Shown here: in pieces, positions 32,689-54,136 of the stretch
Layout: every line of letters starts with the position of its first letter
Position numbering within the stretch: the first letter of the stretch is position 1
DNA from: Candidatus Poribacteria bacterium
GTDB taxonomy: Bacteria > Poribacteria > WGA-4E > WGA-3G
Assembly: GCA_965205025.1 (NCBI GenBank)
Contig: CBDBFU010000016.1
Span: 1 to 64,000 of the forward strand
DNA: 64,000 nucleotides
Direction of reading: 5' to 3'
Made by a program: the position numbers and the translations under genes
The notes under the pieces: model-generated
Seen by the model: only the letters and a program-made list of their open reading frames with translations
What the model was told of the DNA's origin: nothing
Databases searched by the model: none

Positions 32689-32713
32689 TAAACCGTGCCT
32701 ATTTTATTATGAA

Positions 32714-33803
32714 CAGGACTTACGCAAAATTACAAAATGTGTTATTCTTATTGATTATGAACACATTTACACATTCTAAAAAGAAGCAAGACTTATTTTC
32801 CGATTATTGTCAATATTTGTTTTCAAGTTTCACTAATTTTACACAAACTTATTTTGCTAAACATACAGACCGTTGGAGCCACGATCAACTCAATCGCTTT
32901 CTGAGAGACGAAAACATTCCTACAAGTGAACTCTGGGCATCCGTCAAAGACGACATCGACTTTGATGAAGAAGGATACCTGATTTTTGATGATGTTGTGC
33001 TGTCAAAAATACATTCTAAACGGATTGAAATAGTACGCTCTCAATGGAGTGGTAGTGACAGAAAGGTGATTCAAGGTATCGGTATTGTCACCTGTCTCTA
33101 TGTCAACCCTAAGACACAGGAATATTGGGTCATTGATTACCGTATTTTTGACAGAGATCATGACGGTAAAACCAAAATCGATCATTTATTGGATATGTTG
33201 CACGATGCTTATTCTAAGAAACAACTCCCATTCCGGACAGTCTTGATGGACTCTTGGTATGCGTCCATGAAAGTGATGAAAGCGATTGATAGACTTTCTA
33301 AGATCTATTATGTTCCGTTGAAACGAAACCGTCTTGTGAATGATACCAAAGGTGTAGAACCTCACAAGGCAGTCAAAGATCTATCTTGGTCTCAAGCAGA
33401 AAAGAAAAGCGGTAAACGCGTACATCTCAAAAACTTTCCGAAAGGTTCTGTCGTAAAGTTATTCCGGTTTGTGTCTGATACCGGACGCACGGAATATATA
33501 GTGACAAACGATTTGACACAATCAAATGTGGATATGACTCACCAAAAGTGTCGTCTCCGTTGGAAGATTGAACTCCTTCATCGTGAGATGAAACAAGTAA
33601 CCGGTATTGGTAAATGCCAATGTCGTAAGATGCGTGCCCAGAGAAATCATATTGCGTGTAGTTTCCAAGTATGGGTCTTTATGACGCGTGTTGTACGTGC
33701 TGTTGGACAAAAGATTTACGAGTTTAAAGATGGTTTATTGAGTGATTACTTAAAACATCAACTCTCAAATCCTTCAATAAAATTTAAAACTGCGTAAGTC
33801 CTG
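32714..33803 (+). mobile_element. Complete IS701-family insertion sequence (~1.09 kb)
   Basis: 13-bp perfect TIR CAGGACTTACGCA; 5-bp target duplication ATGAA (32709-13 and 33804-08); single DDE transposase. Confidence 0.92.
32757..33797 (+). CDS. IS701-family DDE transposase
   Basis: SHDQLNRFL, LIFDD, VLMDSWY, YIVTND, RWKIE..HRE.KQ.TG and CQCR...QRNH; start placed inside the left TIR boundary. Confidence 0.92.
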   Translation: MNTFTHSKKKQDLFSDYCQYLFSSFTNFTQTYFAKHTDRWSHDQLNRFLRDENIPTSELWASVKDDIDFDEEGYLIFDDVVLSKIHSKRIEIVRSQWSGSDRKVIQGIGIVTCLYVNPKTQEYWVIDYRIFDRDHDGKTKIDHLLDMLHDAYSKKQLPFRTVLMDSWYASMKVMKAIDRLSKIYYVPLKRNRLVNDTKGVEPHKAVKDLSWSQAEKKSGKRVHLKNFPKGSVVKLFRFVSDTGRTEYIVTNDLTQSNVDMTHQKCRLRWKIELLHREMKQVTGIGKCQCRKMRAQRNHIACSFQVWVFMTRVVRAVGQKIYEFKDGLLSDYLKHQLSNPSIKFKTA

Positions 33804-41197: not shown

Positions 41198-41890
41198 TTA
41201 GTAATACTTCTTCATTTGTGCCCAACTCACCGCTAACTTACCGCGTGCCTCAACAGCAGCCACTTGGTCCCACGGTATATTTTTACCGGCACCGTTTGCC
41301 TGATGGACATCATCAAAGTTAGGGTGTCCCCATCCCCCACTACTGTTATCATAGACAACAAGTTGCGCGAGTTCACCTTTGAAGTCAGAAACGTCCCATT
41401 CTTTGCGGGTCATACTTTCGTTGTTGTTACCAGTTGCAGAAAGAACTACTTCCTCATCAATCACAAGGTTGACACCACACGGTTCTGGATTTACACCCCA
41501 TGGACGATTACCCCCACCAATAAGAAAATTCATCGTCTCTCCAACAATCACGAACTCGATTGAAGTCAAAGTCCCTTGTGGTGCATCAACACCATCCGCA
41601 AGATCACCCGGTTTCTGTCCAAGTTTTGCACCTTTGTCCGGTCCCTGATACTTTTCTGCCAATCCAAGCCACCAATCACCTTGATGTTGTGAAGGTTGCC
41701 CTCGATTCCGTGCAGTCGGGTTATCACCCCAAGTCGGTTGAAAATCAAACGCTGTGCCAGTTTTTTCCCAATCTGTGAGATCACCAGTTTCAAAATCGTT
41801 GTTAAACGCACGAGCAAAAACAACGTCAACAGGCAAAATAAGCAGAATTATCAGAAATAACGGGACCACAACTGAAAAAACATATTTCAT
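41198..41890 (-). CDS. Secreted carbohydrate-binding-like protein with Poribacteria-type C-terminal motif
   Basis: Signal peptide; NNDFETGDLTDW, GTLTS..F, FLIGGG, GGWGH; ends AVEARGKLAVSWAQMKKYY. Confidence 0.8.
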   Translation of the reverse strand: MKYVFSVVVPLFLIILLILPVDVVFARAFNNDFETGDLTDWEKTGTAFDFQPTWGDNPTARNRGQPSQHQGDWWLGLAEKYQGPDKGAKLGQKPGDLADGVDAPQGTLTSIEFVIVGETMNFLIGGGNRPWGVNPEPCGVNLVIDEEVVLSATGNNNESMTRKEWDVSDFKGELAQLVVYDNSSGGWGHPNFDDVHQANGAGKNIPWDQVAAVEARGKLAVSWAQMKKYY

Positions 41891-42409
41891 CAGATATGCT
41901 CCTTTGAATACGCCAATTTTTAGCGTCTTTTAGAAAATTGTTAATACAATAGTAGTGGAAAAATAATCGTAAATAGTGTTCTTTAATATAATCGCATTTT
42001 TTCCTTTATATAGCAATGATATTTATAGAAATGGTATTATTTCTTTGCAATAGAAGGGAAAGATTGAACGGCTATTTCTATCTGGAATTCTGGAATCAAT
42101 AGGTTTCTCTTACTATTGCTTATAGCCGACATCCATTTGCTATGTTGTTTGTCTGAACCACAGATTACACGGATTACACAGTTTCACGGTTGGCTTTGTG
42201 CTTGATAACCGTTCTTGTATGGTATAGGTGTTTTTGACTGTATAGTTGATTACACGGATTTCACCTACATACCTATCGAAATTCTTATGTCTAAGGATTG
42301 CAATTACAAAGCTGAATATGGTATTATATTGATACATATTTCACACAAAAATTACACAATAAAATTACATAAAACTATAAACACATTAAAGGAATACTCT
42401 CAGATACTC

Positions 42410-44017
42410 ATGTCGAAAAAAACAGAAAAGAAATCAAATGAAAATGGGGCAACTTTAGGTTTTGAAGCAACCCTATACCAAGCAGCTGATAAACTTCGGA
42501 ACAACATGGATGCTGCAGAATATAAGCATGTAGTTTTAGGATTGATCTTCCTCAAATACATTTCTGATAATTTTGAGGAAAAGTATCAATTTCTACTTCA
42601 ACAGTATGCTAATCCGCAAAGTGATTACTATGTCAAAGAAGAATCTGCCCGTTTGGATTATGCTGAGGATAGAGACGAATACATGGCAGAAAATATCTTT
42701 TATGTGCCGAAGGAAGCGCGCTGGTCATTTTTGCAGGCAAAAGCCAAACAACCAGAAATTGGTACGCTTATTGACGATGCAATGCTGGCAATTGAAAAAG
42801 AAAACCCACGACTCAAAGGTGTACTGCCGAAAAACTATGCACGTCCAAGTTTGGATAAACAACGGCTTGGGGAACTTGTTGATCTTATAGGTACTATAGG
42901 TTTGGGTGAAGAAGAGAATCAATCAAAAGATATTTTAGGTAGAGTGTATGAGTATTTTCTATCACAATTCGCAAGTGCCGAAGGTAAAAGAGGCGGACAG
43001 TTTTATACCCCTCGTTGTGTTGTCCAACTCTTGGTTGAAATGCTCACTCCTTACAAAGGACGAGTATACGATCCATGCTGCGGTTCTGGTGGTATGTTTG
43101 TCCAAAGTGAAGAATTCGTTGAAGCACATGGTGGAAATCCAAATGACATATCAATATATGGACAGGAATCAAACCCAACTACACGACAATTAGCTTTGAT
43201 GAACCTTGCCATACGCGGTATAGACGCGAATCTTGGACTGGAACATGCAGACAGTTTTCACAACGATCTGCACCCTGACTTAAAAGTTGATTTTATCCTT
43301 GCTAATCCACCATTTAACAGCAGTGATTGGGGTGGAGAACGGCTGCCTGAAGATAAACGATGGACTTACGGTACACCTCCAACAGGGAATGCCAACTTTG
43401 CTTGGGTACAACACTTTATTTTCCACCTTGCACCAAACGGGATTGCAGGCTTTGTGTTGGCAAACGGCTCCATGAGTAGCAATACTGCAACCGAAGGTGA
43501 AATTCGCAAAAACATCGTTGCAGCGGATTTAGTTGATTGCATGGTAGCGTTACCCGGGCAACTTTTCTATTCCACATCCATTCCAGTCTGTCTATGGTTC
43601 ATCACAAGAAACAAAGAGAACAGTCAATATCGTAAACGAACTGGGGAAACACTTTTTATTGATGCGCGCAGGTTAGGTGTGATGATTGACCGCGTACACC
43701 GCGAGTTAACGCATATCGAAATGACGCGAATTGCCGAAACTTATCACGCATGGCGCGGCGATGAAAGTTCTGGTGAATATGCTGACGTGCCCGGATTCTG
43801 CAAAAGCACCAAACTCGGTGAGATTCAGGAATACGGATACGTGCTTACACCAGGACGATATGTAGGTATTACAGACATTGAGGATGACGAAATCCCTTTT
43901 GAAAAACAGATAACGCAACTTTCCGACAAACTCTATGAACAGTTTGCAGAGTCTGAACGGCTTGCGGCAGCTATCAAGAAAAATTTAGAAACATTAGGTT
44001 ATAGAGGTGAACAATGA
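42410..44017 (+). CDS. hsdM: Type I restriction-modification methyltransferase (m6A)
   Basis: [38 protein letters not shown] and NPPFN motifs; start at MSKKTEK. Confidence 0.95.
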
Positions 44018-44427
44018 GCTTAAATTTTGACAGTTTAGCAAAATCTATTGAAAGTCTGGAACGCTCTGTTAAGGCTGCCAATACACTTAATACCTCTGAT
44101 GAAGATTTACAAGAAACGGTTCGTGCCGGAGTTATTCATAGTTTTGAGGTTGCTTATGAGCAGTCTTGGAAAATGATAAAGCGGTGGCTTCAAGAAAATA
44201 TTGGTGAGGCTGCCGCTGAAGGGATTACACAACGAAATCTCTTTCGTTTAGGTGCAGAGAGCCAATTGATTTCTGATTCGGAACGTTGGATGGAATATCG
44301 TGAGGCGCGGAATTTGACTTCTCATACTTACAATGAAGATGCTGCTGAAAATGTATTTACTGAAGCTACTGAGTTTATCTATGATGCCAAGCAGCTTTTA
44401 AAAGCATTAGAGGAACGCAATGATTGA
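44014..44427 (+). CDS. HEPN-domain protein (HI0074 / nucleotidyltransferase substrate-binding family), putative RNase toxin
   Basis: [17 protein letters not shown] and RNLTSHTY (Rx4H); overlaps the hsdM stop. Confidence 0.88.
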
Positions 44428-46111
44428 ACTCAATCCTAAACATCTCAAAACAATTAAATACATATTGGCTGAGTACATCCCAGGTTACGAGGTTCGTGCC
44501 TTTGGATCGCGTGTGAAGTGGACAGCGAAAGATTATTCCGACCTTGATCTTGTTGTTGTCGGAAGTAAGCCTTTAAACTTGAAACAGAGAAGCGAATTAG
44601 TAGAGGCATTTGAGGAATCCAATCTGCCATTTCGGGTTGATGTCTTAGATTGGCAATCAATATCAGAAGGGTTCCGACAAGTGATATCGGAAAGATATGA
44701 GATAATTCAAAAAGCACAACTAGTTGACCAGAACGAAAATTCCGAAGGAATTAATGGAAAATGGAGTACAAAAAGAGGATGGCGAGCAAAAACTTTTGGT
44801 GATTGTGCAACGTTGATCCGTGAGCCCGTTTCACCCTCTGATTTGGGTGATACTCCTTATATTGGACTTGAGCACATTGGAGAAAACACATTATCTCTCG
44901 TAGGACAAGGTATAGCAAGCGATGTCACGAGTACAAAGTCTCGTTTCAGAGAGGGTGATATCCTTTTTGGAAAATTGAGATGTTATTTCCGTAAGGTCGT
45001 TACAGCACCTTTTGATGGTGTATGTTCAACGGATATTTGGGTTACGCGCGCCAAAGAAGAAATAGATCAAAATTTCCTCTACTATTGTATGGCATCTCAA
45101 TCTTTTGTTGACTTTGCAGATTCCGGCTCTGAAGGCACACGGATGCCGCGCGCTCAATGGGAATGGGTATCACGATACAGAATCCCTATACCGCCTCTAT
45201 CTGAACAACGCCGCATCGCTCACATTCTCGGCACACTTGACGATAAAATCGAACTCAACCGACAGATGAATGAAACATTAGAGGCAACAGCGCGGGCAAT
45301 TTTCAAGTCATGGTTTGTAGACTTTGACCCCGTGAAAGCAAAAATGGAGGGATGCGAACCCGTTGGTATGGACACTGAAGTGGCTGCGTTAATCTCATCC
45401 ACGTTGCAAGATTCATCCCTCGGGAGGATTCCGAATGGATGGGAAGTCACTAGGTTTGTAGATTTAACCGATGTGGTTTTAGGTGGCGATTGGGGGAAAT
45501 CTACAGAAATCGGTGATTGGTCGTGTCCTGTATTCTGCATCAGAGGTGCCGACGTACCTAGTCTCCAAATTGGAGGTCTTGGGGATATGCCTATCCGGTA
45601 TCTAAAAACATCAAGCTTAGCGAAGCGTCAGCTACAAAATGGGGATTTAGTAATTGAGATATCTGGTGGCGGTCCTACACAGTCAACGGGACGGACAATA
45701 TTAATTAAAAAAGAATTGCTGGATCAACTTGAGTTTCCTTTAGTTTACTCTAATTTTTGCCGCGTTATTCGCCTGAAATCAGAAAACATGTCAAATTTTA
45801 TCTATCTATGGTTTAGGGATCTCTATTCAAATGATAAATTTTTTCAGTACGAAAATGGGACCACAGGAATAAAAAATTTCGCCTTCAAAGTCTTTGCAAA
45901 AGAGCAATACTTATGTATTCCACCTGTGTCTATAATAAATGCGTTTAATCGAACAGTTGAACCATTGTTCAAAATGCTTCAATTTAACGGAGAACAATCT
46001 CGCACGCTTGCCCAAACCCGAGACACGCTATTGCCAAAATTGCTGTCTGGGGAAATTCGTGTAGACGAGGCAAATGAGATATTGGAGGTAACAGATGGCG
46101 AAAAATCCTAA
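44420..46111 (+). CDS. hsdS: Minimal nucleotidyltransferase (MNT) fused to type I R-M specificity subunit
   Basis: N-terminal FGSR...SDLDL...LPFRVDVLDW (MNT), then two TRDs with PPLSEQRRIAHILGTLDDKIELN and RDTLLPKLLSGE. Confidence 0.92.
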   Translation: MIELNPKHLKTIKYILAEYIPGYEVRAFGSRVKWTAKDYSDLDLVVVGSKPLNLKQRSELVEAFEESNLPFRVDVLDWQSISEGFRQVISERYEIIQKAQLVDQNENSEGINGKWSTKRGWRAKTFGDCATLIREPVSPSDLGDTPYIGLEHIGENTLSLVGQGIASDVTSTKSRFREGDILFGKLRCYFRKVVTAPFDGVCSTDIWVTRAKEEIDQNFLYYCMASQSFVDFADSGSEGTRMPRAQWEWVSRYRIPIPPLSEQRRIAHILGTLDDKIELNRQMNETLEATARAIFKSWFVDFDPVKAKMEGCEPVGMDTEVAALISSTLQDSSLGRIPNGWEVTRFVDLTDVVLGGDWGKSTEIGDWSCPVFCIRGADVPSLQIGGLGDMPIRYLKTSSLAKRQLQNGDLVIEISGGGPTQSTGRTILIKKELLDQLEFPLVYSNFCRVIRLKSENMSNFIYLWFRDLYSNDKFFQYENGTTGIKNFAFKVFAKEQYLCIPPVSIINAFNRTVEPLFKMLQFNGEQSRTLAQTRDTLLPKLLSGEIRVDEANEILEVTDGEKS

Positions 46112-47600
46112 GGTATTTATTTCATACTCTCATGACTCTCCAGAGCATAAGCAGTGGGTATCCGAACTTGCTGCACGATTGCGTCATGACGGCATCGATG
46201 CAATACTCGACCAATGGGACCTCGGATTGGGAGATGATGTAACACGATTCATGGAACGTGGCATTGTAGAGGCTGATAGGGTATTAGTAATTTGCACAGA
46301 TCAGTACGTGACTAAAGCAAACGCCGAGGAAGGGGGTGTTGGTTATGAACGTATGATTGTTAATAGTGAACTTGTGCAGAATTTAGGTACAGATAAATTC
46401 ATACCAATCATTCGTAACTCATCAGGTAAAGAAAAAACACCAGCATTCTTAGGAACAAGGGTTTATGCTGACTTTAGAGAAGACAATCAATTTGATGCAG
46501 AGTTTGAAAAATTAATTCGTGAACTCCACGAAATACCCATTGTAGAAAAACCACCATTGGGAGAGAACCCGTTTCCTGCTGTAGAAATAAACACACAGTT
46601 GACAGAAATCCCTGCTAAGATTGGATCTGCTAATGAAGTATATATTACTGCTACAAAATTTATACGTGCTAGGGATACATTTGGTTGGCAGCTATTCTTA
46701 AAGAAGATTAGACCTAATGCTATAGAGACATTGAAACATTGGCGTCTAAGTGAACTCAATAAATCAGGACAAGATAATATAGAACGCTGTAGAATTGTGG
46801 ATCAGGCAGTTGAAATTATTTCATCACTAATGGTATTTACTTTAGCAGGAGTTGAATCCGGACAAGAAGAATTTAGATACGAAAAAGAAATTATATATGA
46901 ATTAACAAACCTTGCAAAACCTAACAGCATGGGTATTTACGATCATCTTTATCAAACCCTAATCTATGTTTATCATAGTATACATGGAAGTCTTTGTTTA
47001 AGTACTAACCAAATTGACTGTGCCTTAAGTTTAGTTCAAGTTAAAACCAAAGATATTTACAGAACGAACCACCGTTATATTTGGCAAGTACCTGAATATA
47101 TGGGTTGGTCTAATTCATTTGGTAAAAAATATCTTGAAGGTTGGCAGTATTTAGTGAATGGTTTTGATAGATGGGAGTGGTTAGCTACGATTTTTGAAGG
47201 TGATTCAAAACTATATAGAACATCATTGGTAACATATTATATGGCTCTGAATATTCACGAATTAGCATCAATAATCGCTTCAAATAAGAATGAGAAAACA
47301 AGCGCGTATAATAGTATGCATCTTTCACCTGACAAGGTTCCATTGACTTTTTTGTTTGAAGATCAAGATATATATGAACAATCTATTTCTCTTTTGTCAC
47401 GGAATCCAGATTCAGTATCAGAATTATGGACATGCTTAAATGTAACGCGTGAGGATATGGTGAATATATGGAGAGAATGGATCAGGAACTCTGAATATTT
47501 GTTAGAGCAGGATTATAGAAGCAATCCCGATGTTAATATAAGAGTAGTGAGAAGAAACGTAGATCGTCATAGTAATTTATTCATGATGTTGCAATCTTAG
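46095..47600 (+). CDS. TIR (TIR_2/SEFIR-like) domain protein, paralogue 1
   Basis: KVFISYSHD, LDQWDL, FMERGI, GGVGYE (putative catalytic Glu), KFIPIIR; ~340-aa unknown C-terminal region. Confidence 0.88.
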   Translation: MAKNPKVFISYSHDSPEHKQWVSELAARLRHDGIDAILDQWDLGLGDDVTRFMERGIVEADRVLVICTDQYVTKANAEEGGVGYERMIVNSELVQNLGTDKFIPIIRNSSGKEKTPAFLGTRVYADFREDNQFDAEFEKLIRELHEIPIVEKPPLGENPFPAVEINTQLTEIPAKIGSANEVYITATKFIRARDTFGWQLFLKKIRPNAIETLKHWRLSELNKSGQDNIERCRIVDQAVEIISSLMVFTLAGVESGQEEFRYEKEIIYELTNLAKPNSMGIYDHLYQTLIYVYHSIHGSLCLSTNQIDCALSLVQVKTKDIYRTNHRYIWQVPEYMGWSNSFGKKYLEGWQYLVNGFDRWEWLATIFEGDSKLYRTSLVTYYMALNIHELASIIASNKNEKTSAYNSMHLSPDKVPLTFLFEDQDIYEQSISLLSRNPDSVSELWTCLNVTREDMVNIWREWIRNSEYLLEQDYRSNPDVNIRVVRRNVDRHSNLFMMLQS

Positions 47601-47710
47601 TGTAGTAATTAGCCGTTTTCTTAATTCATTTTTTCTGGTATAAGCTATAGTCAATTAAGAAATGCCGAATTTAGTAAGTTGCATGGATTGACAGTTATTG
47701 AAGGATAAAG

Positions 47711-49231
47711 ATGTCTGAAAATCCAAAGGTTTTTATTTCATACTCTCACGATTCACCAGAACATAAACAGTGGGTATCAGAACTCGCAGCGCGACTTCGC
47801 CATAGCGGAGTTGATGCAATACTCGATCAATGGGATCTTGGACTCGGGGACGATATTACACGATTCATGGAACGGGGCATTGTGAACGCTAATAGGGTAC
47901 TGGTTATATGCACGGACAAGTACGTGAGCAAGGCAAACGCCGAAGAAGGGGGTGTTGGTTATGAACGGATGATTGTAAATAGTGAACTTGTGAAGAATTT
48001 AGGAACCGATAAATTCATTCCTATCATTCGAAATTCATCGGATAAAGAAAAAACACCAGCATTCTTAGGAACAAAGGTTTATGCTGACTTTAGAGAAGAC
48101 AATCAATATGATGAAGAGTTTGAAAAATTAATTCGTGAACTCCACGAAATGCCGATTATAGAGAAACCCCCTTTAGGAAAAAGTCCGTTTCCTACTGTAG
48201 AAATAGATACACAGTTGATAGAAATCCCTGAAGAAGTTCTATCTGTGCAAGAGGTATATTTAACAGCTTCTAAACTGATTCGTGCAGGGGATACATTTGG
48301 ATGGCGTGAACTTATTAAAAAGATTCGACCAACCGTTTTTAAGGATTTAGTCCAATGGCGACAAAATGAATTGAATGGAAAAAATCCAGAAAACAAAGAA
48401 CAATTGGTTCAGATTGTGGATAAAGCCGTTGAAATTATTTCCCCTTTAATGGTAGTTGCTTTAGCAGGTGTCGAATCTGGTAGAGAGGAATTTCGAGACC
48501 AAAAAGCTTTTCTTGATGACCTGCTAAATATAACTGGATGGAATAGTGATGAGAACAGAGAGTGGATACGTCTTCCTTATGCTTTAGGATATGTATATCA
48601 TAGTTTGCACGGGTGCGTTGGTTTGGGTACAAATCAAATAGACCTTGCTCTTGAGCTTGCCTCGGTTAAAATTCCTGATAAATACAATAGAAAAGAACTC
48701 ATTCATGTTTGGAAGCTATCTGAGTTTGTAGGATGGGCAGACTCCTTTGGTCCAGATTGTACAAAAGGGTGGGAATATTTAGCCAATGCGTATAAAAGAT
48801 GGGAATGGCTATCTCTCATATTTGAGAATGACTTAGAATACCGTGCATCATTAGTGGCATATTACATGACACTCAATATTCATGAATTTGCAGCAAAAAT
48901 TGCATTGTACCAGAAAGAAAACTTAACAAGAACTTACAATTCGACATCTCCCTTTGACTTTGATGTCCCCCTCACTTTTATGACTGAAACCACAAAAATA
49001 TATGAACGAGCACAATTTCTTTTACTACGGCATCCAGACTCAGTTTCTGAATTATGGACAAAATTAGATGTTACACAGAAACAGCTACATGACTTTTGGA
49101 ACAATTGGGTTGGTCAATTTAACAGTTGGTTAGGAAATATTTATAGAGAGGCACCAGTTAGTGTTAATCGTGCCAATTTTTCAAGGAACATTATATACCA
49201 TCGGGATTTTCTTAAGATGTTGCAACAGTAA
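47711..49231 (+). CDS. TIR domain protein, paralogue 2
   Basis: Same TIR motifs; C-terminus homologous to paralogues 1 and 3 (YVYHSLHG, SLVAYYMxLNIHE). Confidence 0.88.
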   Translation: MSENPKVFISYSHDSPEHKQWVSELAARLRHSGVDAILDQWDLGLGDDITRFMERGIVNANRVLVICTDKYVSKANAEEGGVGYERMIVNSELVKNLGTDKFIPIIRNSSDKEKTPAFLGTKVYADFREDNQYDEEFEKLIRELHEMPIIEKPPLGKSPFPTVEIDTQLIEIPEEVLSVQEVYLTASKLIRAGDTFGWRELIKKIRPTVFKDLVQWRQNELNGKNPENKEQLVQIVDKAVEIISPLMVVALAGVESGREEFRDQKAFLDDLLNITGWNSDENREWIRLPYALGYVYHSLHGCVGLGTNQIDLALELASVKIPDKYNRKELIHVWKLSEFVGWADSFGPDCTKGWEYLANAYKRWEWLSLIFENDLEYRASLVAYYMTLNIHEFAAKIALYQKENLTRTYNSTSPFDFDVPLTFMTETTKIYERAQFLLLRHPDSVSELWTKLDVTQKQLHDFWNNWVGQFNSWLGNIYREAPVSVNRANFSRNIIYHRDFLKMLQQ

Positions 49232-49335
49232 ACTTTGCTTGCAGAGACACCTAATAACTCATTAATTCCCATTTCAACGTTTGAACTGTAAGTAAATGTT
49301 GTAATCATTTTGTAATAATCAGAGATATAGTAAAT

Positions 49336-50832
49336 ATGACAGAACATCCAAAAGTTTTTATATCCTATTCCCATGATTCCCCTGAACATAAACAGTGGGT
49401 ATCCGAACTTGCTGCACAATTGCGTAACAATGGAATTGATGTCATACTTGACCAATGGGACCTTGGTTATGGTGATGATTTTCCACAATTCATGCAACGA
49501 GGAATCGTTGAAGCTAATAGAGTTTTGGTTGTTTGTACTGATGAATATGTAACCAAGGCAAATAAAGGTGTAGGTGGTACTGGTTACGAATGCATGATTG
49601 TTAACGCGGAACTTGTCAAGAATTTAGGTACAGATAAATTCATACCTATCATTCGTCAGTCATCAGGAAATGACATAACCCCAATCTTTTTAGGTACGAA
49701 AGTTTACGCAGACTTTAGAATAGACAAGGAATTTGATGAAGAGTGTGTAAAATTATGCCGTGAAATTCACAATATGCCTATTGTAGATAAACCACCTTTG
49801 GGAAAGAATCCGTTTCCTACCATTAAATTAGACCCACAATTGACTGATATTCCTGAGGAAGTTCTATCTGTGCAGGAGGCATATTCAACTGCTACTAAAC
49901 TCATTAGGGCAGGGGATACATTTGGATGGCGTGAACTTATTAAAAAGATGCGTCCAAAGGTTTTTAAGGATTTAGTTCAATGGCGAGAAAAAGAATTGGA
50001 TGGACAAAAGCCGGAAAGCAAAGAACAATTAGTCCAGACTGTGGATAAAGCCGTTGAAATTATTTCTCCTTTAATGGTTGTGGCATTAGCGGGAGTCGAA
50101 TCTGGTAGAGAGGAATTTCGAGACCAAAAAGCTTTTCTTGATGACCTGCAAAACATTGTAGGTTGGAAATCTGCTGGGTACGATGCATGGATACAACTGC
50201 CAAAAGCCTTAGGGTACGTGTATCATAGCATGCATGGAGGAGTCTGTCTGAGTACAAATCAGATAGACCTTGCACTCGGTCTAGCCCAAATCAAAATTCC
50301 TGTCGCTGGTGGTACAAAGTTTTTCCCATTATGGGAAATGAGTGAATTTAGGGGATATGCATATTCAATTAGTGGTACTCGAGGTGGAAATTGTCTTGAA
50401 AGTTGGAGCTATTTAACCAATGCCTATGATAGATGGGGATGGTTATCCTCATTTTATGAAGATAAATTGGCATATCAATCATCATTAGTGGCATATTATA
50501 TGGCATTGAATATTCACGAATTAGCATCGGTTATCTCATTAGGCAGGGAGGATATGTTACAATCAACATCCGAACCATATTTTCAGATTCCGTTGACTTT
50601 TCTAACTGAAGACTATAATACCACTAAGAAAGCAATTTCTTTACTTAGAAATGATCCAAATACTCTGTCAGTTCTATGGGAAAGTTTAAGGGTTGAACAT
50701 AAGAAAATCGAAAGTTTATGGGAAAATTGGATTGACTTATCTGAAAGAGCTTTGATAAGATCAATGTCCTTTAATGAAACAACTCTTATAAATCTTGCTG
50801 ATCTTTATCGTTATCTCTTTAAAGGCATGTAA
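49336..50832 (+). CDS. TIR domain protein, paralogue 3
   Basis: KVFISYSHD, GGTGYE, YVYHSMHG and SLVAYYMALNIHE. Confidence 0.88.
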   Translation: MTEHPKVFISYSHDSPEHKQWVSELAAQLRNNGIDVILDQWDLGYGDDFPQFMQRGIVEANRVLVVCTDEYVTKANKGVGGTGYECMIVNAELVKNLGTDKFIPIIRQSSGNDITPIFLGTKVYADFRIDKEFDEECVKLCREIHNMPIVDKPPLGKNPFPTIKLDPQLTDIPEEVLSVQEAYSTATKLIRAGDTFGWRELIKKMRPKVFKDLVQWREKELDGQKPESKEQLVQTVDKAVEIISPLMVVALAGVESGREEFRDQKAFLDDLQNIVGWKSAGYDAWIQLPKALGYVYHSMHGGVCLSTNQIDLALGLAQIKIPVAGGTKFFPLWEMSEFRGYAYSISGTRGGNCLESWSYLTNAYDRWGWLSSFYEDKLAYQSSLVAYYMALNIHELASVISLGREDMLQSTSEPYFQIPLTFLTEDYNTTKKAISLLRNDPNTLSVLWESLRVEHKKIESLWENWIDLSERALIRSMSFNETTLINLADLYRYLFKGM

Positions 50833-50904
50833 TTACAATTAGGAGATAAACACAAACCACAAGTTTATGTCTGGTTAATAAGATACGATCCAAAATTTAA
50901 AAAC

Positions 50905-53900
50905 ATGAATCTCAATACAATCCACGAATCCGATATTGAAGAATCTACCCTTCAATGGTTTTCCGATTTAGATTATGCTGTATTACACGGTCCAGATATA
51001 GCACCAGACTCCCCTAATGCAGAACGTTCTTCATACAAAGATGTTGTACTGAAACAACGACTACATGATGTTGTTACCCGTCTTAATCCTACGATCCCTT
51101 CTGATACACTACAAGAAGCAATCAATAAAATCCTCAATCCAAATTCCCAAGTGTTAGTACAAAACAACAACACTTTCCACTCAATGTTAATTGGTGGCAT
51201 AGAAGTGGAATATCGACAAGAAGATGGAAGCATACGTGGGGATCGTGCCAAACTAATTGATTTTGAAACACCTGAAAACAACGATTGGCTTGTAGTAAAT
51301 CAGTTTACTGTTGCAGACGAATCCAATTGTCGGCCAGACATTGTAGTTTTCATCAATGGACTTCCATTAGCAGTGATTGAACTCAAGAATCCTACAGATG
51401 AATCAGCGACAATTACCAGTGCATTTCACCAAATACAAACATATAAAAAGGAAATACCATCTATTTTCGCTTATAATGAAGTTATAGTTATCTCAGATGG
51501 ATTAGAGGCACGTATCGGTTCTCTAACTGCAGACAAGGAATGGTTTTTACCTTGGCGAACAATAGAAGGGGATGAGGAGGCTGCTCCAACTGAATTAGAA
51601 TTAGAAGTTTTAATAAATGGGGTTTTTCAAAAGAAACGTCTCTTAGAATATTTAAGACATTTCATCGTCTATGAAGAAACTGACAACGGTTCAATTGCAA
51701 AGAAGATTGCTGGTTACCACCAATTCCATGCTGTCCAAACTGCTGTTGAAGCTACAATTAAAGCATCAGGTGTGGATGGGGATAAACAGTGTGGGGTTGT
51801 ATGGCATACACAAGGTTCCGGTAAAAGCTTAACAATGGCTTTTTATGCAGGGAGTATCATTCAACGTCCGGAAATGGAAAACCCCACAATTGTGGTAATT
51901 ACAGATCTAAACGACCTTGACGATCAACTATTCGGTACATTCGCCCGTTGTAATCAACTCCTTAGACAAAAACCTGTGCAAGCACAAGACAGAAAACACT
52001 TAAGGGAACTCCTACAAGTAGCATCTGGGGGTGTGATCTTTAGTACAATTCATAAGTTCTTTCCAGAAGAGGAGGAAACGTACTTTCCACAACTATCAGA
52101 CAGACGTAACATTATCGTTATTGCTGACGAAGCACACCGTAGTCAATACGGGTTTATTGATGGTTTTGCACGGCATCTACGTGACGCAATTCCAAATGCT
52201 TCATTCATAGGTTTTACTGGGACACCTATCGAACTTGCAGATAGAAATACAGTAGCCGTATTTGGTGATTACATTAGTATATACGATATTCAGCAAGCGG
52301 TTGATGATGGTGCTACTGTTCCTATTTACTACGAAAGTCGACTTGCTAAAATTGAAATGGATGAAGATGAAAAACCACATATTGATCCTGAATTTGAAGA
52401 ATTAACTGAAGCTGAAGAAGTAGCAGAAAAAGAGAAATTAAAATCTAAATGGGCACAGATGGAAGCATTGGTCGGAACTGAAAAGAGAATTGGACTTGTT
52501 GCTGATGATATAATTTCACACTTTGAGGAACGATTAGAAACTATGGACGGAAAAGGGATGATTGTTTGTATGAGTCGTAGAATCTGTGTGGATCTATATA
52601 ATGCCATTATCAAACGCAGACCAGACTGGCATGACGACAATGATAAGAAAGGAATTATAAAAGTAATAATGACAGGTTCATCGTCGGATGATGAGTCATG
52701 GCAACAGCATATCCGAAACAAAAAACGTAGAGAACAATTGGCAACTCAATTTAAGGATTCGAGTGAAGCATTCAAACTTGTTATAGTTCGTGACATGTGG
52801 TTAACAGGATTCGATGCCCCAAGTCTTCATACAATGTATGTAGACAAACCAATGCAGGGACATGGACTAATGCAAGCAATCGCTCGTGTTAATCGCGTAT
52901 TTAAAGATAAACCTGGGGGTTTAATCGTTGACTACATTGGACTTGCATATCATTTAAAACAAGCATTGAGTAATTACACCAGAAGCGGTGGCAAAGGAAA
53001 AGCAACATTAAACAAAGAGGAAGCAGTGGCTGTCATGCTTGAAAAACACGAAATCTGCTGTGACCTTTTTCATGGATTCGACTGGACATTATGGTCAACT
53101 GGTACTCCCGCGGATCGAATAAAATTACTCCCTGCTGCTCAAGAACATATCTTACAACAAGAGAATGGAAAAAATCGTCTACTTGAAACTGTTTCTGCTT
53201 TGACAAAAGCATTCGCGCTTGCTGTTCCACATGAAAAGACAATTGAGATACGTGACGATGTAGGATTTTTCCAAACAGTTCGTAAAATTTTGTCAAAACG
53301 CAGTATTGACGAAGAGACACAGTTGGAATCTACTGACGAAGCAATTAAGCAATTAGTATCCAAATCAGTAGTGCCTGAAGGAGTAGTAGATATTTTTGCA
53401 GCCGCAGGATTAAATAAACCAGATATCTCAATTCTATCGGAAGAATTTCTTGATGAAGTAAAAGATCTACCACAAAGAAACTTAGCAGTTGAACTACTTG
53501 AAAAACTTCTGAAGGGTGAAATTAGGTCCCGTTCAGATAAAAACGTCGTTCAGGCACGGTCATTTGCTGAAATGTTAGAACGTTCAATTCGTAATTATCA
53601 GAATCGAAGTATTGAGGCTGCACAAGTTATTGAACATCTAATCGAAATTGCAAATGAGATGCGCGAAGCACAAGAACGGGGTGATGAATTAGGACTATCT
53701 GAAGATGAATTGGCTTTCTACGATGCTCTTGAAACAAATGATAGTGCTGTTCAGGTATTGGGAGATGAAACTCTAAGAACCATTGCAATTGAACTGGTGG
53801 AAAACGTCCGTAAAAATGTATCCATTGACTGGACATTAAAAGACAGTGTAAAAGCTCAGATAAGGTTAATTATTAAACGTATTCTACGTAACCACGGATA

Positions 53901-53979
53901 CCCACCAGACAGAGAAGAGAAAGCTACTCAAACTGTTATAGAACAGGCAGAAGTATTGTGTCATAATTGGGAATATTAA
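50905..53979 (+). CDS. hsdR: Type I restriction endonuclease subunit R
   Basis: [47 protein letters not shown] and QAIARVNR motifs. Confidence 0.96.
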
Positions 53980-54136
53980 ACCGACGATATAAACAGAATA
54001 CCTAATTTACATTCTGTGTTTCATTACAATCCTTAGTCAATTTCTACCTTATTCATCCCTGTCTTCTTTCCAACTAATTAATGTTCCAGACCACATTCCT
54101 AAGATATTTGCACATTCCTCAATGTTCTCTATAGAA

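Follow-up and report, generated by a model that had tools for sequence, protein, structure and literature searches.

Three tandem, diverged bSEFIR paralogues inserted between the hsdS and hsdR genes of a Candidatus Poribacteria type I restriction-modification operon

Introduction

What are three genes of nearly the same length doing in a row between hsdS and hsdR of a type I restriction-modification (R-M) operon? The question arises in the first 64,000 nucleotides (nt) of contig CBDBFU010000016.1 of the Candidatus Poribacteria assembly GCA_965205025.1, a stretch that we call the window and whose host lineage is described as a sponge-symbiont-like bacterium. The three genes are intact, lie in tandem on the plus strand and encode proteins of 498-506 amino acids (aa). 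Judged by their sequences, they are diverged full-length paralogues of the bSEFIR single-protein anti-phage family, and they probably serve as three autonomous NAD+-depleting abortive-infection (Abi) sensors, which the operon carries as cargo in its hsdS-hsdR slot. Both the system and this sort of arrangement have been described before, so that the genes illustrate how immunity can be stacked and nested rather than reveal a new type of system.

In the available text of the preprint by Millman et al. (10.1101/2022.05.11.491447), SEFIR homologues are reported in 460 genomes, and the SEFIR protein of Bacillus sp. NIO-1130 by itself protects B. subtilis against phi29, which the D40A substitution abolishes. 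Two later preprints, in their available parts, describe SEFIR as a single-protein system whose N-terminal domain depletes NAD+, yielding ADP-ribose (ADPR) as well as nicotinamide, and a phage NARP1 pathway that overcomes it. According to the available text of Payne et al. (10.1101/2024.01.29.577857), defence genes are frequently embedded in type I R-M, BREX and DISARM systems, and embedding in Hma systems is also described. In the literature searched, SEFIR genes inside type I operons are undescribed; the article by Millman et al. as published in its journal and the preprint supplements, which lay outside the search, may list cases. Likewise, the word SEFIR is absent from the main text of the Payne preprint in its available form (10.1101/2024.01.29.577857), the supplements of which were outside the search.

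Results

Family identity and layout of the proteins

The three genes that raise the question are as follows.

46095..47600, plus strand: bSEFIR copy 1, 501 aa (PADLOC bSEFIR, E 1e-80)
47711..49231, plus strand: bSEFIR copy 2, 506 aa (PADLOC bSEFIR, E 2.5e-79)
49336..50832, plus strand: bSEFIR copy 3, 498 aa (PADLOC bSEFIR, E 9e-74)

An initial annotation of the window had described three tandem paralogues of about 500 aa between hsdS and hsdR, with highly alike TIR N-termini, diverged C-termini and FISYSHD and GGxGYE motifs. The gene calls over 46095-50832 are indeed intact, and both motifs, the second as GG(V/T)GYE, stand in all three copies. The PADLOC search that the annotation had proposed returned the bSEFIR model PDLC03957 for each protein, at E 1e-80 to 9e-74 and with 271, 266 and 248 bits for copies 1, 2 and 3, and the same model gave 0 matches in 14 control genomes. 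The nearest solved protein is the SEFIR domain of B. cereus (5y8e at E 2e-27 over aa 5-154, 5y8f at E 1e-25), as against TIR structures, which score E 2e-3 or worse by sequence in the Protein Data Bank (PDB). The N-terminus is TIR-like, as had been said, and by its solved relatives it is specifically of the SEFIR type. The window N-domain shares 40% identity with 5y8e/5y8f over about 150 residues, the solved chains being the SEFIR domain only (144-154 residues), and a Foldseek search with the full-length model also places 5y8e and 5y8f on top (5y8e E 3e-7, TM-score to target 0.79). NCBIfam gave no match near its curated cut-offs for the three proteins, and neither an ATPase nor a HEPN domain was detected in them by Pfam, PADLOC or NCBIfam.

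The likeness between the copies falls off steeply along the protein. Over their full length, copies 1 and 2 are 62% identical, copies 1 and 3 54% and copies 2 and 3 63%. In residues 1-160 the values, in the same order, are 89%, 75% and 75% and in residues 161-330 they are 53%, 49% and 76%, while in the last third they drop to 45%, 38% and 39%, which bears out the contrast that had been noticed between the two ends (75-89% versus 38-45%).

Within the SEFIR domain, D39, G80, G81, Y84 and E85 are invariant in 50/50 aligned relatives and in 19/19 more distant ones. D39, in an ILDQWD motif, aligns with ILDRW of 5y8e and is the putative equivalent of D40 of the tested Bacillus protein, and E85 is the putative catalytic Glu by analogy with TIR enzymes. 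The ILDxW Asp and the GGxGxE Glu of the window copies are also present in the B. cereus SEFIR structure. The three window proteins are predicted NADases. The bSEFIR system of Millman et al. (PDLC03957) likewise joins an N-terminal SEFIR domain and a C-terminal extension in one protein. It differs from the present case in that it is a single gene there, in place of three tandem diverged copies nested between hsdS and hsdR, and the window proteins have about 500 aa versus the 412 positions of the model.

The shared C-terminal domain

In copy 1, the SEFIR domain spans aa 5-155 and is followed by an all-alpha C-terminal domain (C-domain) at aa about 175-501. The initial annotation had been unable to assign the C-terminal regions to a family. 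This no longer holds, as the sequences align as one shared conserved family domain, the homology runs over the full length, and the protein belongs to bSEFIR (PADLOC E 1e-80). A match of the C-terminus to a known system had been named as something that would speak against the annotation, and such a match was found in part, in that the protein as a whole is bSEFIR.

Folded alone with a 135-row alignment, the C-domain gives a confident AlphaFold2 (AF2) model that is all-alpha with one small hairpin (pLDDT 93.2, pTM 0.92). The structural comparison suggested by the annotation thus yielded a good model and no convincing solved relative: Foldseek found no match at E<=1e-3 in the PDB (best TM-score 0.28) or among the BFVD viral structures, and the highest Z that VIA-align reached among 48,161 chains was 6.8, with generic helical repeats throughout. 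The missing structural match does not make the fold new. The ESM Atlas places the C-domain beside a single SEFIR/TIR_2 cluster (0.76) and otherwise beside clusters named "hypothetical protein" (0.92, 0.91).

Among 1.84 billion cluster representatives, the C-domain finds 300 proteins at E<=1e-3, 41 of them at E<=1e-30. With a hidden Markov model built from alignment A2, a SEFIR-like N-terminus is present in 87 of the best 150 matches, and many of the other matches are domain-only pieces of 60-360 aa, possibly fragments. When 20 C-domain proteins with a long non-SEFIR or extended N-terminus were scanned by Pfam, the N-domain was Pkinase in six (P0161, P0186, P0228, P0239, P0250, P0270), a ParA-like AAA_31 in three (P0127, P0223, P0235) and TIR_2 without a SEFIR match in one; four carried an N-terminal region of about 190 aa to which no Pfam family matched, and six were SEFIR plus an extra N- or C-terminal stretch, one with LexA_DNA_bind. 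The C-domain is thus reused as a module. Because it is attached to several different output domains, it resembles a sensing or regulatory module, and its sensor role in the window proteins is putative. Being well folded, without a solved relative and of a role undescribed in the literature searched, it is a candidate phage-sensing domain. Its reuse with kinases and ParA-like ATPases, like the SEFIR::HEC-01A and MNT::HsdS fusions described below, is unreported in the literature searched, some of which the Millman journal version or the supplements may cover.

The host operon

The plus-strand array of about 42.2-54.0 kb reads, by Pfam and PADLOC, hsdM, HepT, MNT::hsdS, three SEFIR genes and hsdR, so that HsdM, HsdS and HsdR of type I restriction-modification are all present around the copies.

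42215..44017, plus strand: hsdM, type I R-M methyltransferase (Pfam N6_Mtase E 3e-107, HsdM_N E 1e-25; PADLOC MTase_I E 1e-222)
44014..44427, plus strand: HepT-like (NTase_sub_bind / HI0074 family) toxin-type gene, between hsdM and hsdS (Pfam NTase_sub_bind E 5e-37, HepT-like E 2e-5; NCBIfam TIGR01987 E 5e-21)
44420..46111, plus strand: MNT::HsdS fusion in a single open reading frame (ORF), nucleotidyltransferase at aa 1-98 and HsdS at aa about 116-556 (Pfam Polbeta and NTP_transf_2 at aa 8-93, Methylase_S; PADLOC Specificity_I E 6e-77)
50905..53979, plus strand: hsdR, type I restriction subunit (Pfam HSDR_N, SWI2_SNF2, T1R_D3-like, T1RH-like_C; PADLOC REase_I E 0)

The ATG of copy 1 at 46095, preceded by a GGAGGT motif, overlaps the end of hsdS (46111) by 17 nt; gaps of 110 nt and 104 nt separate the copies, and 72 nt lie between copy 3 and hsdR. 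A simple promoter and terminator scan of 41800-54400 gave counts not above those of shuffled sequence (35 versus a mean of 41, and 7 versus 7.4) and no plus-strand terminator between the copies, and because the counts did not exceed the shuffles, we infer rather than observe co-transcription. A look-up of public runs listed no RNA set that contains the stretch. As relatives align to hsdM by tblastn from query residues 49-68 onwards, the true hsdM start is probably downstream of the listed TTG.

DNA repeat families spaced 1616-1634 nt apart run through the locus, and together with the Pfam TIR_2 and SEFIR matches they show that the likeness of the copies is no accident. Public contigs from two runs span every junction (hsdS to copy 1, copy 1 to 2, copy 2 to 3 and copy 3 to hsdR) with zero differences; this support is not independent, because both runs may be source samples. 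An assembly artefact is ruled out as far as these contigs show, every junction being bridged.

The MNT::HsdS fusion recurs as an ORF of 528-563 aa with the same first residues in 13 related loci, some of which are the same genome twice, and no description of an MNT antitoxin-HsdS fusion was found in the literature searched. With the antitoxin tethered in this way to a subunit of the R-M enzyme, HepT could act as a trip-wire that responds when HsdS is lost. As a unit, one restriction operon that carries a toxin-antitoxin pair and three putative NAD+-depleting sensors is an example of layered immunity.

Age and relationships of the copies

We built a quick IQ-TREE phylogeny (LG+G4, SH-aLRT support only) of 52 full-length copies, excluding those of <450 aa and the HEC fusions. 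In this tree, 11/12 copies from loci classed below as "alone" form one clade (support 100), opposite a second that holds every R-M- or HEC-linked copy (support 100). Copies 1 and 2 sit inside a 12-row clade that is entirely R-M-linked, where copy 2 is sister to L074_1 (support 95, 74% identity), and copy 3 belongs to a separate 5-row clade (support 98; 73% identity to L063_1). Copy 1 also has counterparts in metagenomes, with 91% and 87% identity.

Synonymous divergence (pS) between the copies is 0.45-0.73, near saturation, with local dips to 0.22-0.28 at codons 91-180 (copies 1-2) and codons 181-270 (copies 2-3), which can be read as old conversion tracts. Given the near saturation of pS, the different clades and the local dips, the triplet is best seen as a partly recombined stack of old alleles. 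A recent triplication in situ is ruled out by the pS of 0.45-0.73 and by the placement of copy 3 in another clade than copies 1 and 2. Across 41 relatives, mean column entropy rises from 0.64 in the SEFIR domain to 1.10 in the middle and 1.48 in the last third, with peaks at residues 321-340 and 461-500. Three old, recombining copies are a natural set for mapping the surface patches that set specificity.

Elsewhere in the same genome there is a remnant of a SEFIR N-domain of 71 aa that keeps VFISYSHD (G000:C18:29612-29803, also L004:1510-1725), where the model match runs through stop codons.

The hsdS-hsdR slot in relatives of the phylum

A scan of a genome collection gave 23 loci, mostly from Candidatus Poribacteria records, and the bSEFIR model matches 64/176 genomes of the window's phylum at E<=1e-20, the window's genome included. 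We then mapped 60 loci from 58 genomes with the window's proteins by tblastn at a coverage of at least 0.4, leaving out small-contig fragments and some second loci. The SEFIR gene or genes lie between hsdS/hsdM and hsdR in 30/60 loci and are partly embedded, with a contig end or a missing hsdR, in 3/60. In 8/60, bSEFIR is accompanied by a SEFIR::HEC-01A fusion and DUF4276 with hsd genes undetected, and 19/60 are "alone", having none of these neighbours. The gap between hsdS and hsdR is thus a conserved cargo slot.

The usual layout in relatives is hsdM, often a Schlafen/AlbA_2 gene, often HepT and MNT::hsdS, one bSEFIR gene, a second cargo block and hsdR, and a start that overlaps hsdS like that of copy 1 is also found there. 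Three full-length copies occur only in the window, and two occur in L076 and L080, among the 60 loci. The second cargo is of two kinds, either a SEFIR::ABC ATPase (PADLOC HEC-01A E 8e-154) with DUF4276 (HEC-01B), or a GHKL ATPase with a receiver-like protein; altogether the slot also holds the unrelated cargo HEC-01, GHKL ATPase, Abi_2, Fic and CD-NTase. The SEFIR::HEC-01A gene is seen at L008:11935-14218, likewise at L007:11643-13926 and in about 35 loci, with bSEFIR at E 2e-60 on aa 1-154, and the DUF4276 gene after it matches HEC-01B at E 2e-83. A SEFIR head on HEC-01A suggests an NAD+-depleting output. HEC-01 was without defence in a published test, according to the available text of Payne et al. 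(10.1101/2024.01.29.577857).

At two loci (L070, L081), bSEFIR, SEFIR::HEC-01A and DUF4276 lie between an upstream sulfatase gene and a STAS gene, with hsdM, hsdS and hsdR absent. A sulfatase gene also lies upstream of hsdM at L008, and this common edge suggests that the three occupy the same chromosomal site, which would mean that the hsd genes were lost or never joined at L070 and L081.

We scanned the neighbours of six "alone" loci, and restriction genes of type III or EcoEI-type R-M adjoin 4/6. At L059, L093 and L102 the bSEFIR gene stands tail-to-tail with a type III Res gene (ResIII and RE_endonuc), followed at L059 by a DNA methylase, and at L097 it comes directly after an EcoEI-type hsdR-hsdM-hsdS. 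For the other two, no restriction gene was found among the two neighbours scanned for each.

The architecture outside the phylum and in metagenomes

Outside the phylum, a Chthoniobacterales locus (L021) reads hsdM-hsdS-Abi_2-SEFIR-hsdR, its hsd genes being 26-30% identical to those of the window. Of the more distant homologues, one (L023) adjoins Thoeris genes and another (L025) lies on an integrase/type IV secretion system element. Plasmids gave 181 matching records, none of which covers at least 80% of the query and most of which match in the SEFIR domain alone.

For metagenomes we took the 80 top-ranking matches to a family alignment, an R-M-embedded query. Nineteen of these 80 loci encode SEFIR with this C-domain (31-57% identity) and 61 encode SEFIR with another C-terminus. 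Type I hsd genes lie beside 8/19 of the former and 0/61 of the latter; with both flanks of at least 2 kb the counts are 6/9 versus 0/13, and with both flanks of at least 4 kb they are 4/5 versus 0/8. The sample is biased to the R-M-embedded clade, as it was ranked by likeness to the query, and many contigs are short; the Fisher value of 4e-6 overstates the case because the metagenome rows are related to each other. Pfam confirms HsdR or HsdM in the five metagenome loci checked. As the hsd matches vary widely in strength, more than one type I family seems to be involved. Since this architecture turns up with unusual frequency inside type I operons, and in more than one family of them, a possible wiring between NADase effectors and restriction is directly testable.

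Other cargo in bSEFIR-type type I operons comprises CD-NTase (DncV-like) with an Mrr-like gene, Fic, a YhcG/DUF1016 nuclease, Bro-N and Abi_2 (L146:4384-7956, L179:6537-7868, L119:9168-13926, L131:7794-8915, L151:3006-3974).

Proposed mechanism and its alternatives

We favour a mechanism in which each bSEFIR protein would be a self-contained sensor-effector, whose all-alpha C-domain of ~330 aa would keep the SEFIR domain inactive until a phage-derived cue appears. The SEFIR domains would then come together and split NAD+ into ADP-ribose and nicotinamide, and the infected cell would stop, as in abortive infection. A near-identical effector in three copies with differing sensor surface patches would widen the range of cues; differences in specificity among the three copies, including different cues, are putative. 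Placement inside the operon would bring co-inheritance, and probably co-transcription, of restriction as a first line and Abi as a second. The autonomy of the sensors from R-M is favoured because 8/60 loci keep bSEFIR and the HEC-01 cassette where no hsd genes were detected. The diversified sensor repertoire proposed in the initial annotation is a reasonable reading of the identity, tree, nonsynonymous divergence (pN) and entropy patterns.

Several observations weigh against this proposal. First, the published membership rule, in the available text of 10.1101/2022.05.11.491447, asks for an N-terminal SEFIR match stronger than the TIR match by HHsearch against PDB and Pfam; our PDB search favours SEFIR, but Pfam hmmscan favours TIR_2, which at aa 5-141 scores E 3e-24 to 5e-23 (82-86 bits) and beats SEFIR at aa 5-128, with E 4e-15 to 6e-16 (57-59 bits). 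Second, the PADLOC alignment takes in model positions 35-349 (of 412) for copy 1 and 35-245 for copies 2 and 3, where it reaches only about residue 205, so that these two can be likened only indirectly to the tested Bacillus protein in their C-domain. Third, pN is 0.06-0.14 in the N-domain versus 0.35-0.42 in the last third, but the pN/pS values are rough, because pS is near saturation, and are no proof of positive selection. Finally, the tight and recurrent type I link (30+3 of 60; 8/19 versus 0/61) could mean that the proteins depend on Hsd.

This last point leads to the reading in which the C-domain guards the R-M complex in the manner of PrrC. At the EcoprrI locus prrC lies between hsdS and hsdR, the position that the three copies also take, and PrrC is an ABC-ATPase and HEPN RNase that cleaves tRNA-Lys and is kept latent by the R-M enzyme. 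Here, the C-domain would bind the Hsd complex or sense its anti-restriction inhibition, the NADase would be freed once restriction is disabled, and each of the three copies would answer to other anti-restriction factors. According to the available text of 10.1101/2024.01.29.577857, PrrC is found almost exclusively inside type I R-M, and like the present genes it is a suicide-type effector encoded within such an operon; it differs in that the window proteins combine a SEFIR NADase-type domain with an all-alpha C-domain, without ATPase or HEPN, and in that their kind of cargo persists without hsd genes in 8/60 loci.

A guard would account for the full embedding in 30/60 phylum loci and partial embedding in three more, for the overlap of the copy 1 start codon with hsdS in the window and in relatives, for the separation of the R-M-linked copies from 11/12 "alone" copies in the tree, for the restriction genes (type III or EcoEI-type) next to even the "alone" clade in 4/6 scanned loci, and for the metagenome counts of same-architecture loci beside type I hsd as against other SEFIR genes. 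We nevertheless consider it unlikely, as 8/60 loci keep the cargo without hsdM, hsdS and hsdR, and once its guardee is gone, a guard would be expected to be of no use or toxic. Many unrelated Abi-type genes also occupy this slot (HEC-01, GHKL, Abi_2, Fic, CD-NTase with Mrr), which fits the general embedding described in the available text of 10.1101/2024.01.29.577857; the Bacillus SEFIR protein that was tested acts by itself in B. subtilis, as far as the preprint's available text goes; and the metagenome sample is biased as stated above. Co-folding of HsdS (aa 105-563) with copy 1 gave a score of 0.00 against a mark of 0.32, and since this was run without controls it weighs neither way. The initial annotation had spoken of guarding or complementing the R-M system. 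Guarding is thus without direct support, and complementing fits better because the cargo persists without hsd and the slot holds unrelated cargo.

The stronger form of the guard, in which the SEFIR clade with this C-domain is a dedicated type I partner across phyla and an NAD+-depleting analogue of PrrC, we hold to be quite improbable. Were it true, the C-domain would monitor the Hsd complex or trap anti-restriction proteins or by-products of restriction, the three mosaic copies would be a repertoire against different phage anti-restriction factors, and HepT with MNT::HsdS would be a second trip-wire of like kind in the same operon.

Compared with this, TgvAB is a case of defence genes likewise nested in a type I R-M cluster, in which TgvAB alone is protective (10.1101/2024.04.04.588119); its cargo is GmrSD-like type IV restriction, whereas the window cargo is a predicted NAD+-depleting Abi system.

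The proteins might instead act as signal makers like ThsB of Thoeris, which has a TIR-superfamily domain acting on NAD+, as predicted here. They would then produce an ADPR-derived messenger for an effector elsewhere, possibly a cassette of the HEC-01 type found in relatives. In Thoeris, multiple diverged ThsB copies per locus widen sensing. PADLOC and NCBIfam models of ThsB and of the Thoeris type III TIR protein match the window proteins weakly (E 1e-3 to 2e-4), and in most relatives a SEFIR::ABC ATPase and DUF4276 partner follows bSEFIR. Yet Pfam scans found no candidate receptor or effector in the window's operon, and neither the operon nor the scanned flanking ORFs of window 28-64 kb have a ThsA-type SIR2, Macro or SLOG domain, in line with the earlier remark that this is not canonical Thoeris. 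The HEC-01 cassette is altogether absent from the window, SEFIR itself is described as an NAD+ depleter in the available parts of the later preprints, and a single gene sufficed in the published test, per the available text of 10.1101/2022.05.11.491447. We therefore regard signalling to a separate effector as very unlikely.

Least probable of all is a role outside defence, in which SEFIR/TIR-like proteins of a sponge symbiont would target host immune adaptors or scaffold interactions. The closest genomes are those of Candidatus Poribacteria, and an older proposal, quoted in the available text of the Millman preprint (10.1101/2022.05.11.491447), took prokaryotic SEFIR to be general interaction domains. 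However, the operon around the genes is one of R-M that also carries a toxin-antitoxin pair, relatives of 31-40% identity occur in diverse non-sponge contigs inside R-M operons beside Abi_2, Fic and CD-NTase, and no export signal was seen, though no predictor was run.

Flanks of the island

The island is flanked by housekeeping genes, ilvC-like upstream and a purD-like GARS gene downstream. Between the ilvC-like gene and the island lies a DDE_Tnp_1 transposase gene (32709-33797, plus strand), and an ORF of 230 aa (41198-41890, minus strand), to which no Pfam or NCBIfam family matched, stands just 5' of hsdM. On the other side are two further genes.

54842-55630, minus strand: DUF3800 protein (Pfam DUF3800 E 4e-9)
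55807-56775, minus strand: WYL/WCX helix-turn-helix (HTH) regulator (Pfam WYL E 5e-19, WCX E 2e-16, HTH_11 E 3e-9)

WYL regulators are frequently tied to defence islands. Here, the DUF3800 and WYL/WCX genes form the edge of the island directly 3' of hsdR on the opposite strand, and their link to the operon is a candidate one only.

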